NCBI RefSeq assembly: GCF_003334785.1
Contig: NZ_QOWV01000001.1
Origin: Escherichia coli
GTDB lineage: Bacteria > Pseudomonadota > Gammaproteobacteria > Enterobacterales > Enterobacteriaceae
DNA length: 64,000 bases
Strand: one strand, 5' to 3'
In this document: positions 27,216-41,527 of the stretch, one piece after another
Layout of the letters: the number at the start of each line of letters is the position of its first letter
Position numbering within the stretch: the stretch's first letter is position 1
Position numbers and translations under genes: made by a program
The notes under the pieces: generated by a model
Seen by the model: only the letters and a program-made list of their open reading frames with translations
Told to the model about the DNA's origin: nothing
Databases searched by the model: none

Positions 27216-28418
27216 TTAACTGGCTTTTTTAATATGCGGAAGGTCGAACGCTTTGCGCAGCGCCCGAACAAACGCTTTATCATGGCAGATAGTTTTGCCA
27301 GGGCTGTCAGAAAGTTTCGCCACCGGTTTACCGTTACACTCTACCAACTTAATGACAATATTCAGGGGTTTTACCTGGGGGATATCGCAGGTCAGGCGAG
27401 TCCCAATACCAAAACTTAATTGCACGCGGGAAGAGAAGTGGCGGTATAGCTCAACCGCTTTGCGTAAATCCAGATTGTCAGAGAAAACCAGCGTTTTACT
27501 CTGTGGATCAATTCCCAGCTTTTCATAATGTGCAATGGCTTTTTCACCCCATTCAACCGGGTCGCCAGAGTCATGACGCAGGCCCTGATACCGACTAGCG
27601 AACTCGACACCGAAATCACGCAGGAAAGCATCCATAGTGATGCAGTCGGTTAATGCAATGCCAAGTTGGTCGGGATACTCTTCCAGCCAGGCAGCAAGTG
27701 CAGCTCGCTGGCTGTTGGCTAGATCCGGGCTGATTTGCTGATGTGCCTGGAACCATTCGTGTGCCTGTGTTCCCATCGGCGTGAGGGAAAGCCGACGCGC
27801 CAGATCGTAGTTGCTGGTGCCCACAAACCAGGATTCCTGTTGCAGACGCTTAACGATGGTTTCTTGTACTTCGCGAGAAAAACGGCGACGGGTGCCAAAA
27901 TCCATCAGATGGAAGCGCGACATATCAAGACCGGCGGTTAACGCCGAGAAGTCGACTAATTTGCTTTCCAGCGTGTCGAGGGCTTGCGCAACGTCGGCCT
28001 GCGGTGAGCGATAGCGATGTACCATTTCACTGATAACCGCCAGCAAAGGAACTTCCCAGAGGATGACTTCACGCCACGGGCCGCTTAAACGAATATCCAG
28101 CTTGCCATTATCGTTGGACACGGTGACTTGTTCCGGGTTAAAGCGGAACTCGCGTAACCAGTTAAGATAGTCGGCCTTAAAGAAAGGCAGGGCAGAAAGC
28201 CACTGATATTCATCATCCTGCAGGCGCAGGTGCTGCATCGCCTGAACCTGTTCACGAATAGCATCGGCATAAATACCCAGCAGATCGTCACCTCGGCAAC
28301 GAAACTCCGCCGCGACATGCACATCGTAATAGTGATGAAACACGGCTTGCTGCATATGCAACTTATAAGCATCTGTATCCAGCAACGAGTGCAGAACAGG
28401 AGAAGCGAATTGTGTCAT
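27216..28418 (-). CDS. pncB: nicotinate phosphoribosyltransferase
   Basis: 400-aa product from ATG at 28418 ([24 protein letters not shown]...). Confidence 0.95.
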
Positions 28419-28683
28419 AGGTGCGCAGTAGCGTCCTCGTACAGGAGCGTTTAGTACAATAAACATCTTCAGGAACTGCTGGAGTATACCTTGTTTCGCA
28501 ATTTATTGAACCCCGATCACACCATATGCCACCTTTCTGGTCGATGGCATTACGCGGTGTATGTTATAAAAATGTAGCAATAAAGGCGTTTGTACCTGAA
28601 AAGATGAAGATTCTGCATAGCGCGATTTACGCAACAGGAATAGACTGAACACCAGACTCTATAAAAGATGCTAAAGGTTATTT

Positions 28684-31296
28684 ATGACTCAACAGCCACA
28701 AGCCAAATACCGTCACGATTATCGTGCGCCGGATTACCAGATTACTGATATTGACTTGACCTTTGACCTCGACGCGCAAAAGACGGTCGTTACCGCGGTC
28801 AGCCAGGCTGTCCGTCATGGTGCATCAGATGCTCCCCTTCGTCTCAACGGCGAAGACCTCAAACTGGTTTCTGTTCATATTAATGATGAGCCGTGGACCG
28901 CCTGGAAAGAAGAAGAGGGCGCACTGGTTATCAGTAATTTGCCGGAGCGTTTTACGCTTAAGATCATTAATGAAATAAGCCCGGCGGCGAATACCGCGCT
29001 GGAAGGGCTTTATCAGTCAGGCGATGCGCTTTGCACCCAGTGTGAAGCCGAAGGTTTCCGCCATATTACGTATTATCTCGACCGCCCGGACGTGCTGGCG
29101 CGTTTTACCACCAAAATTATTGCCGATAAAATCAAATATCCCTTCCTGCTTTCCAATGGTAACCGCGTTGCGCAAGGCGAACTGGAAAACGGACGCCATT
29201 GGGTACAGTGGCAGGACCCGTTCCCGAAACCGTGCTACCTGTTTGCGCTGGTGGCAGGCGACTTTGATGTACTGCGCGATACCTTTACCACGCGTTCTGG
29301 TCGCGAAGTAGCACTGGAGCTGTACGTCGATCGCGGCAACCTTGATCGCGCGCCGTGGGCGATGACCTCGCTGAAAAACTCCATGAAATGGGATGAAGAA
29401 CGCTTTGGCCTGGAGTATGACCTCGACATCTATATGATCGTCGCGGTGGATTTCTTCAATATGGGCGCAATGGAGAATAAGGGGCTGAATATCTTTAACT
29501 CCAAATATGTGCTGGCCCGCACCGACACCGCCACCGACAAAGATTACCTCGATATTGAACGCGTTATCGGCCATGAATATTTCCATAACTGGACCGGTAA
29601 CCGAGTGACCTGTCGCGACTGGTTCCAGCTCAGCCTGAAAGAAGGTTTAACCGTCTTCCGCGATCAGGAGTTCAGCTCTGACCTTGGTTCCCGCGCAGTT
29701 AACCGCATCAATAATGTACGCACCATGCGCGGATTGCAGTTTGCAGAAGACGCCAGCCCGATGGCGCACCCGATCCGCCCGGATATGGTCATTGAGATGA
29801 ACAACTTCTACACCCTGACCGTTTACGAGAAGGGCGCGGAAGTGATTCGCATGATCCACACCCTGCTTGGCGAAGAAAACTTCCAGAAAGGGATGCAGCT
29901 TTATTTCGAGCGTCATGATGGTAGTGCAGCGACCTGTGACGACTTTGTGCAGGCGATGGAAGATGCGTCGAATGTCGATCTCTCCCATTTCCGCCGTTGG
30001 TACAGCCAGTCCGGTACACCGATTGTGACCGTCAAAGACGACTACAATCCGGAAACCGAGCAGTACACCCTGACCATCAGCCAGCGCACGCCAGCCACGC
30101 CGGATCAGGCAGAAAAACAGCCGCTGCATATTCCGTTTGCCATCGAACTGTATGATAACGAAGGCAAAGTGATCCCGTTGCAGAAAGGCGGTCATCCGGT
30201 GAATTCCGTGCTGAACGTCACTCAGGCGGAACAGACCTTTGTCTTTGATAATGTCTACTTCCAGCCGGTGCCTGCGCTGCTGTGCGAATTCTCTGCGCCA
30301 GTGAAACTGGAATATAAGTGGAGCGATCAGCAACTGACCTTCCTGATGCGTCATGCGCGTAATGATTTCTCCCGCTGGGATGCGGCGCAAAGTTTGCTGG
30401 CAACCTACATCAAGCTGAACGTCGCGCGTCATCAGCAAGGTCAGCCGCTGTCTCTGCCGGTGCATGTGGCTGATGCTTTCCGCGCGGTACTGCTTGATGA
30501 GAAGATTGATCCAGCGCTGGCGGCAGAAATCCTGACGCTGCCTTCTGTCAATGAAATGGCTGAATTGTTCGATATCATCGACCCGATTGCTATTGCCGAA
30601 GTACGCGAAGCACTCACTCGTACTCTGGCGACTGAACTGGCGGATGAGCTACTGGCTATTTACAACGCGAATTACCAGAGCGAGTACCGTGTTGAGCATG
30701 AAGATATTGCAAAACGCACTCTGCGTAATGCCTGCCTGCGTTTCCTCGCTTTTGGTGAAACGCATCTGGCTGATGTGCTGGTGAGCAAGCAGTTCCACGA
30801 AGCAAACAATATGACTGATGCGCTGGCGGCGCTTTCTGCGGCGGTTGCCGCACAGCTGCCTTGCCGTGACGCGCTGATGCAGGAGTACGACGACAAGTGG
30901 CATCAGAACGGTCTGGTGATGGATAAATGGTTTATCCTGCAAGCCACCAGCCCGGCGGCGAATGTGCTGGAGACGGTGCGCGGCCTGTTGCAGCATCGCT
31001 CATTTACCATGAGCAACCCGAACCGTATTCGTTCGTTGATTGGCGCGTTTGCGGGCAGCAATCCGGCAGCGTTCCATGCCGAAGATGGCAGCGGTTACCT
31101 GTTCCTGGTGGAAATGCTTACCGACCTCAACAGCCGTAACCCGCAGGTGGCTTCACGTCTGATTGAACCGCTGATTCGCCTGAAACGTTACGATGCCAAA
31201 CGTCAGGAGAAAATGCGCGCGGCGCTGGAACAGTTGAAAGGGCTGGAAAATCTCTCTGGCGATCTGTACGAGAAGATAACTAAAGCACTGGCTTGA
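28684..31296 (+). CDS. pepN: aminopeptidase N (M1 zinc metallopeptidase)
   Basis: 870-aa ORF with GAMEN exopeptidase motif and HEYFHNWTGNRVT...E zinc-binding motif. Confidence 0.97.
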   Translation: MTQQPQAKYRHDYRAPDYQITDIDLTFDLDAQKTVVTAVSQAVRHGASDAPLRLNGEDLKLVSVHINDEPWTAWKEEEGALVISNLPERFTLKIINEISPAANTALEGLYQSGDALCTQCEAEGFRHITYYLDRPDVLARFTTKIIADKIKYPFLLSNGNRVAQGELENGRHWVQWQDPFPKPCYLFALVAGDFDVLRDTFTTRSGREVALELYVDRGNLDRAPWAMTSLKNSMKWDEERFGLEYDLDIYMIVAVDFFNMGAMENKGLNIFNSKYVLARTDTATDKDYLDIERVIGHEYFHNWTGNRVTCRDWFQLSLKEGLTVFRDQEFSSDLGSRAVNRINNVRTMRGLQFAEDASPMAHPIRPDMVIEMNNFYTLTVYEKGAEVIRMIHTLLGEENFQKGMQLYFERHDGSAATCDDFVQAMEDASNVDLSHFRRWYSQSGTPIVTVKDDYNPETEQYTLTISQRTPATPDQAEKQPLHIPFAIELYDNEGKVIPLQKGGHPVNSVLNVTQAEQTFVFDNVYFQPVPALLCEFSAPVKLEYKWSDQQLTFLMRHARNDFSRWDAAQSLLATYIKLNVARHQQGQPLSLPVHVADAFRAVLLDEKIDPALAAEILTLPSVNEMAELFDIIDPIAIAEVREALTRTLATELADELLAIYNANYQSEYRVEHEDIAKRTLRNACLRFLAFGETHLADVLVSKQFHEANNMTDALAALSAAVAAQLPCRDALMQEYDDKWHQNGLVMDKWFILQATSPAANVLETVRGLLQHRSFTMSNPNRIRSLIGAFAGSNPAAFHAEDGSGYLFLVEMLTDLNSRNPQVASRLIEPLIRLKRYDAKRQEKMRAALEQLKGLENLSGDLYEKITKALA

Positions 31297-40984: not shown

Positions 40985-41527
40985 ATGAAGAAAAAAACGA
41001 TATTTCAGTGCGTTATCTTGTTCTTTAGCATTCTTAACATCCATGTCGGGATGGCTGGGCCTGAACAAGTTAGTATGCATATTTATGGGAATGTGGTCGA
41101 TCAGGGCTGTGATGTCGCCACCAAAAGTGCATTACAAAATATTCATATTGGTGATTTTAATATCAGTGATTTTCAGGCCGCGAATACCGTAAGCACTGCT
41201 GCTGATTTGAATATCGATATCACCGGTTGTGCCGCTGGTATTACTGGCGCGGACGTCCTTTTTAGCGGCGAGGCTGACACCCTTGCGCCGACACTGCTCA
41301 AACTAACTGACACAGGCGGAAGCGGTGGTATGGCAACGGGGATTGCCGTGCAAATTCTTGATGCGCAAAGTCAGCAAGAAATCCCGCTCAATCAGGTCCA
41401 GCCTCTTACGCCCTTAAAAGCCGGGGATAACACACTCAAATATCAACTTCGTTATAAGTCCACAAAGGCGGGAGCAACGGGCGGTAATGCGACGGCGGTT
41501 CTCTATTTTGATCTGGTTTACCAGTGA
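40985..41527 (+). CDS. ycbU: fimbrial-like subunit
   Basis: 180-aa ORF with signal peptide and pilin-like C-terminus (...AVLYFDLVYQ). Confidence 0.8.
   Translation: MKKKTIFQCVILFFSILNIHVGMAGPEQVSMHIYGNVVDQGCDVATKSALQNIHIGDFNISDFQAANTVSTAADLNIDITGCAAGITGADVLFSGEADTLAPTLLKLTDTGGSGGMATGIAVQILDAQSQQEIPLNQVQPLTPLKAGDNTLKYQLRYKSTKAGATGGNATAVLYFDLVYQ

Follow-up and report, generated by a model that had tools for sequence, protein, structure and literature searches.

A probable NadR operator (NAD box) ahead of pncB in Escherichia coli

The NAD box between pncB and pepN

The DNA considered here, referred to as the window, is a stretch of 64 kb of E. coli K-12-type DNA. Around the site, 1 kb of sequence is 100% identical to MG1655 and was found in 5426 of 5426 complete E. 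coli genomes. The interval from 28419 to 28683 (265 bp, 42% G+C) corresponds exactly to the divergent intergenic region of two genes, which were both assigned from the RefSeq annotation of identical DNA. The regulated gene pncB (27216-28418, minus strand) encodes nicotinate phosphoribosyltransferase, and its divergent neighbour pepN (28684-31296, plus strand) encodes aminopeptidase N. The nadR gene itself is absent from the 64-kb window.

The element of interest is a candidate NadR operator (NAD box) at 28448-28465, an imperfect palindrome of 18 bp that reads CGTTTAGTACAATAAACA on the plus strand and TGTTTATTGTACTAAACG on the pncB strand and is composed of two inverted hexamers with a 6-bp spacer between them. 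An earlier sequence-only reading of this DNA had drawn attention to an inverted TGTTTA/TAAACA motif. The string that it quoted, gtttagtacaataaacatc, is indeed present at 28449-28467, and the full element occupies 28448-28465. Its placement near the pncB start, between the divergent genes pncB and pepN, is likewise accurate, as the box lies within the intergenic region, with 29 nt between it and the pncB ATG. According to the literature, NadR operators follow an 18-bp palindromic consensus, TGTTTA-N6-TAAACA (PMC2330246, PMC2330245), and the pncB box agrees with it at 11 of the 12 specified positions. The promoter-proximal half-site TGTTTA (28460-28465, minus strand) matches perfectly and shows no variation among the 37 unique box-bearing upstream sequences that were compared. 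The sole departure is located in the ATG-proximal half-site TAAACG (28448-28453, minus strand; consensus TAAACA), namely the C at 28448, which represents the outermost G on the pncB strand (G for A). This terminal G is part of a sequence block, AAACGCTCC, that is kept in box-free genera too, which explains why the mismatch is fixed. The match had been described as approximate, and this holds insofar as a mismatch exists, but the agreement is closer than the wording implied.

The rarity of the box was assessed by scanning both strands of the window for the consensus. With at most one mismatch the pncB box is the single match, compared with an expectation of 0.10 in dinucleotide shuffles, of which 10 in 100 contained one match. 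Mononucleotide shuffles of the 265-bp intergenic region reached the same level in 310 of 200,000 cases (0.16%). These figures bear on the explanation that an AT-rich intergenic region has produced an AT-rich palindrome by chance. The base composition of the region is in line with a chance origin, as is the outcome of a relaxed scan, in which five matches with up to two mismatches were found in the window versus 2.25 expected, a difference that is not significant. However, the uniqueness of the box at one mismatch, the low frequency with which shuffled intergenic regions equal it, and its fixed position across many genera while the neighbouring columns vary make a mere coincidence very improbable.

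The box was also scored with a symmetrised weight matrix built from four training sites (the nadA box, both nadB boxes and the niaP site of Proteus) and no pncB sequence. It obtained 16.4 bits, ranking second among the approximately 64,000 positions of the window and lying about 4.9 standard deviations above the mean, versus 18.0 to 27.6 bits for the training sites. Taken alone this matrix is weak evidence, because the training sites are few and a site in a coding region scores slightly higher. The latter, TCTTTAGCATTCTTAACA at 41022-41039 (plus strand), reaches 16.7 bits, is located within an open reading frame of 180 amino acids (40985-41527) and deviates from the consensus at two positions; it is probably a chance match. 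No papers were retrieved by a full-text literature search for exact matches to the 18-mer in either strand orientation.

Promoter geometry and related operators

Published transcription starts given in U00096.2 coordinates were transferred to the window by subtracting 961161. The underlying offset from U00096.2 to U00096.3, which we take to be +777 in this region, is supported by the resulting purine starts, i.e. an A at 28477, a G at 28577 and an A inside the box of nadA; a further start, at 28653, falls on a C and is non-discriminating. The pncB transcript begins with the A at 28477 (minus strand), as determined by dRNA-seq (Romero et al. 2014, PMC4681348), and has a 5' UTR of 59 nt. In the supplementary table that underlies this assignment, the start is entered as the reverse-strand start RVS_(II)-989638 in U00096.2 coordinates and flagged 'YES', a flag that, judged from the main text, apparently designates starts already contained in RegulonDB (PMC4681348).

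The -10 hexamer of pncB, read from the sequence, is TATACT (28483-28488, minus strand); it is located 6 nt upstream of the mapped start and does not vary among the 75 unique upstream sequences. The putative -35-like hexamer TTCAAT (28505-28510, minus strand), which lies in a conserved GGGGTTCAATAAA block, matches the consensus at three of six positions and is separated from the -10 by a spacer of 16 nt. A scan of 28300-28800 for consensus promoters and terminators gave no calls. The promoter was missed by the scanner because its -35 is weak, the -10 being good, and it was therefore placed by conservation and the published starts.

Relative to the pncB start, the box extends from +13 to +30 with its centre at +21.5. 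Its location inside the leader is the basis of a reading in which the palindrome acts as an RNA hairpin of the pncB 5' UTR that controls translation or stability. The box does lie within the 59-nt leader, and the part of the leader downstream of the box is conserved. Nevertheless, the predicted fold of the leader (-11.7 kcal/mol) is indistinguishable from the shuffled mean of -11.65 kcal/mol (z = -0.02), the arms of the palindrome are unpaired in both the MFE and the centroid structure, an Rfam search of the leader matched no family, and the invariant box sequence offers no covariation. A functional RNA structure is accordingly regarded as highly improbable, and this reading was rejected on the basis of the shuffles and the Rfam search.

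The comparison with the nadA and nadB operators that the sequence-only reading had proposed was carried out with the upstream regions of MG1655, and it bore out the suggested kinship: half-sites, 6-bp spacing and a spacer start of GTA are all common to the pncB box. The nadA box, TGTTTAGCATATAAAACA, deviates from the consensus at one position. The proximal nadB box, TGTTTAGTAAATTAAACA (NC_000913.3 2710396-2710413), is located just before the ATG and shows no mismatch, and a second, weaker nadB box with two mismatches, TGTTTAGCAACTGTAACA, is found 74 bp upstream. If these three sites are aligned with the plus strand of the pncB box, the half-sites, the spacing and a spacer start of G(T/C)A are shared by all of them.

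The correspondence with nadB is particularly detailed. The proximal nadB box and the pncB box are both 18-bp palindromes whose 6-bp spacer begins with GTA, and each is placed directly downstream of a -10-like hexamer and ahead of a gene for NAD synthesis. They differ in that the nadB box is a perfect consensus and ends 6 nt before the ATG, whereas the pncB box has its one mismatch and the larger distance of 29 nt; moreover, nadB has the second, weaker box, whereas pncB has at most one extra half-site. The nadA-pnuC box follows the same consensus as the pncB box, also with one mismatch, and overlaps the region of the transcription start. It spans -8 to +10 of the nadA start mapped by Cappable-seq (U00096.2 781226), thereby indicating that NadR boxes coincide with start sites or follow them closely, whereas the pncB box at +13 to +30 is situated further downstream. 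Both positions fall inside the footprint of promoter-bound RNA polymerase or at its margin, as is expected for the site of a repressor.

Further equivalents are known from other genera. The pncB operators of Salmonella, Citrobacter and Enterobacter have the identical sequence TGTTTATTGTACTAAACG at the same distance from the ATG (e.g. Salmonella enterica arizonae, locus L021). The predicted niaP site of Proteus mirabilis, TGTTTAGTATACTAAACA (PMC2330245), shares half-sites and spacing with the pncB box and likewise precedes a niacin-related gene; it differs in being a fully symmetric 18-mer in a different genus, ahead of a transporter gene, and in being predicted only.

Some additional features of the pncB promoter and leader were noticed in the course of this analysis. 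A TGTGATC motif is present at 28515-28521 (minus strand; -44 to -38), directly ahead of the pncB -35. Wherever this promoter segment is retained, in box-bearing and box-free sequences alike, the motif hardly varies; Klebsiella, Raoultella and Trabulsiella differ upstream. The motif looks like one half of a CRP-type site, with a poor second half (TTCAA). The leader downstream of the box (28419-28447, minus strand) is conserved in all genera. Its sole Shine-Dalgarno-like element, GAGGA (28438 to 28434, minus strand), is located unusually far from the ATG, at a distance of 15 nt, and the centroid fold contains a small CGC-UACU-GCG hairpin between this element and the ATG. A very strong RNA 3' end has been reported at NC_000913.3 990303 (Adams et al. 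2021, PMC7815308 supplement), which corresponds to window position 28365 (minus strand), 53 nt into the pncB open reading frame. In combination with the start at 28477, this end points to an abundant 5' fragment, about 113 nt in length, that originates from premature termination or processing.

Distribution of the box in Enterobacteriaceae

The conservation of the box was investigated in 80 Enterobacteriaceae loci, which were obtained by a scan for the PncB protein with one genome per species. The sequence TGTTTA-N6-TAAACG is present at 28-29 nt from the pncB ATG in 54 of these 80 other species, and in 46 of the 54 the spacer TTGTAC is also identical to that of the window. The genera with the box include Escherichia, Salmonella, Citrobacter, Enterobacter, Lelliottia, Leclercia, Kluyvera, Kosakonia, Phytobacter, Pluralibacter and Pseudocitrobacter. 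When the 37 unique upstream sequences with a box are compared column by column, 16 of the 18 box columns are invariant (mean column identity 0.99), in comparison with only two of the 17 columns between the -10 and the box (mean identity 0.69), a segment in which indels occur as well. Within the species, 5407 of 5426 complete E. coli genomes match the 61 nt around the box with at least 99% identity, which amounts to practically identical sequences.

The spacer of the pncB box is as invariant as its half-sites, and part of the conservation may therefore stem from something other than the half-sites. Alternative sources may be contacts of NadR with the spacer, for which other boxes show a preference for GTA/TAC, or a -10 element of the plus strand that is embedded in the spacer (see below).

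The box is missing in the remaining 26 of the 80 species, among them Klebsiella, Raoultella, Trabulsiella, Atlantibacter, Franconibacter, Siccibacter, Mangrovibacter, Superficieibacter and Pseudescherichia vulneris. All 26 retain the TATACT -10 hexamer and the downstream leader. This patchy distribution is in agreement with a comparative-genomics reconstruction that assigns pncB to the NadR regulon in six of 11 Enterobacteriales genomes (PMC5343134 supplement).

Several variants of the control region deserve mention. In four loci, which represent Enterobacter spp. and one "Proteobacteria bacterium" MAG (L026, L027, L028, L030), the box follows the -10 after 7 nt instead of 17 nt, corresponding to a deletion of 10 bp or one helical turn; this distance measures 15-20 nt in other genera. 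Box-free genera possess an alternative control region, ATAAAC(C/A)GATAATCAGGGTATACTCCTGCGTCTTTATCTGC, about 80 nt upstream of pncB (loci L029, L050, L052, L054, L063, L065, L069, L070, L074, L076, L078, L080 and L084). A GATAA...TTATC inverted repeat flanks the -10 in this alternative region and may serve another regulator. In Enterobacter sp. Ag1 (L077, approximately 1304-1321), a perfect TGTTTAGTACTCTAAACA precedes pncB by 179 nt, and the upstream neighbour there is not pepN. A common TGTTCAATATATTAAACT with two mismatches is located about 137 nt upstream of pncB in Klebsiella, Raoultella and Trabulsiella (L037, L040, L051, L055, L056, L058, L059, L062 and L064). The TGTTTAGTACTCTAAACA and TGTTCAATATATTAAACT sites may be relocated NadR boxes.

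Control by NadR and the pepN-ward start

NadR has been described as a repressor of nadB, nadA-pnuC and pncB (PMC12421817), and the E. coli regulon in a RegulonDB-derived table consists of nadA, pnuC, pncB and nadB (PMC3224099). The assertion of the sequence-only reading that pncB is subject to NadR repression is thus found in the literature, in the former source with citation of earlier work. Repression requires the N-terminal helix-turn-helix domain of NadR, which is restricted to Enterobacterales, and binding to the operator is promoted by NAD and released by ATP (PMC12421817, PMC2330246), with c-di-GMP as an additional effector of release. The most conserved member of the regulon, its conserved core, is nadA-pnuC (PMC5343134). 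Binding of NadR at nadA has been demonstrated by EMSA and ChIP in Salmonella, in a study whose assays comprised the nadB and nadA-pnuC promoters only (PMC12421817). A literature search for NadR ChIP-exo in E. coli returned nothing useful.

The consensus match, the likeness to the nadA and nadB boxes, the conservation, the position relative to the start site and the regulon listing are concordant, and they support the original proposal of a NadR-type operator. The palindrome at 28448-28465 is very probably the operator by which NadR exerts its repression of pncB. A different regulator of the helix-turn-helix type might conceivably use a similar AT-rich inverted repeat, but the half-sites and the 6-bp spacing equal those of the NadR consensus and of the nadA and nadB boxes, and pncB is a documented NadR target (PMC12421817, PMC3224099), so that this alternative appears extremely remote.

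The regulatory scheme would be as follows. At high NAD concentrations, a NAD-bound NadR protein, presumably a dimer, would occupy 28448-28465 with one helix-turn-helix on each half-site; at low NAD, binding of ATP would free NadR from the operator, following the published ligand logic (PMC12421817, PMC2330246). Since the box is located at +13 to +30, just past the -10, bound NadR would overlap the downstream edge of RNA polymerase, and it would probably act sterically by blocking open-complex formation or promoter escape at pncB. Repression would switch off the salvage of nicotinate together with nadA-pnuC and nadB. The operator is an already known, ordinary and well conserved feature. It is part of the textbook feedback loop by which salvage and de novo synthesis of NAD are coordinated, and nothing new follows from it in this respect. 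What the present analysis provides are the exact coordinates and the promoter geometry of the pncB operator in the window, as well as an example of an operator that was correctly recognisable from sequence alone.

The same stretch of DNA also contains signals that point towards pepN. A fairly strong plus-strand transcription start with a score of 39.4 has been mapped by Cappable-seq at U00096.2 989629 (PMC4782308 supplement; the evidence from this source comprises the plus strand only, among the starts listed), which corresponds to window position ~28468, 3 nt beyond the box. A -10-like hexamer, TACAAT (28455-28460, plus strand), is located inside the operator spacer, 8 nt upstream of this start. 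The pepN starts determined by Cappable-seq lie at ~28577, 28653 and 28684 (plus strand). The start at ~28468 faces the pncB start at 28477, and the 5' ends of the two transcripts would consequently share an overlap of about 10 nt.

These signals give rise to the suggestion that the element is chiefly the -10 region of a pepN-ward promoter and that its likeness to a NadR box is secondary. The start at 28468, preceded by TACAAT at a distance of 8 nt, is one argument in favour, its score being 39.4 versus 59.9 and 70.1 for the main pepN starts; another is that the spacer variants of other genera (TACATT, TAAAAT, TAGATT, TACAGT) all keep the A at the second and the T at the sixth position. However, a -10 hexamer leaves the invariance of both inverted TGTTTA/TAAAC half-sites unexplained, and the same type of palindrome occurs at nadA and nadB, where a divergent promoter is not needed. 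Moreover, the pepN-ward promoter has neither a -35 nor a TG extension, and its start does not appear in the dRNA-seq list of Romero et al. (PMC4681348). A primary role as a pepN-ward promoter element is therefore rated as unlikely. An embedded -10 of the plus strand and a NadR operator are compatible with each other and not exclusive.

A candidate auxiliary half-site for NadR is located in the spacer between the -35 and the -10 of pncB, at 28492-28497 (minus strand; -20 to -15), where Escherichia has GAAACA and the majority of the other genera, among them Salmonella, Citrobacter and Enterobacter, have TAAACA. A hexamer of the type (T/G)AAAC(A/G) is present at this position in all 55 box-bearing sequences and in none of the 26 box-lacking ones. 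The former comprise 50 times TAAACA, four times the weaker GAAACA (Escherichia) and once TAAACG; TAATCA, TAATAA and similar hexamers are found in the 26 latter. On a neighbour-joining tree of pncB, the presence of the box requires at least five changes of state. This co-occurrence suggests that the spacer hexamer represents an auxiliary half-site that is coupled to the box. The box-free regions resemble one alternative 'haplotype', and replacement of the whole segment could therefore yield the same co-occurrence.

If the operator and the spacer hexamer at 28492-28497 are considered jointly with the pepN-ward start, a more far-reaching scenario can be tentatively put forward, which we consider doubtful: NadR may engage the palindrome together with the spacer half-site, and one complex may gate the two face-to-face promoters, thereby coupling the upstream pepN transcript to the NAD status of the cell.

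Two further observations concern the pepN leader. The Rfam family of the PepN 5' UTR thermometer (RF02779) gives a weak full-length match at 28586-28713 (plus strand), with 21.3 bits versus a gathering score of 83 (E = 0.2). An 'orphan' RNA 3' end of the plus strand has been reported at NC_000913.3 990599 (PMC7815308), which corresponds to window position 28661, 23 nt before the pepN ATG.
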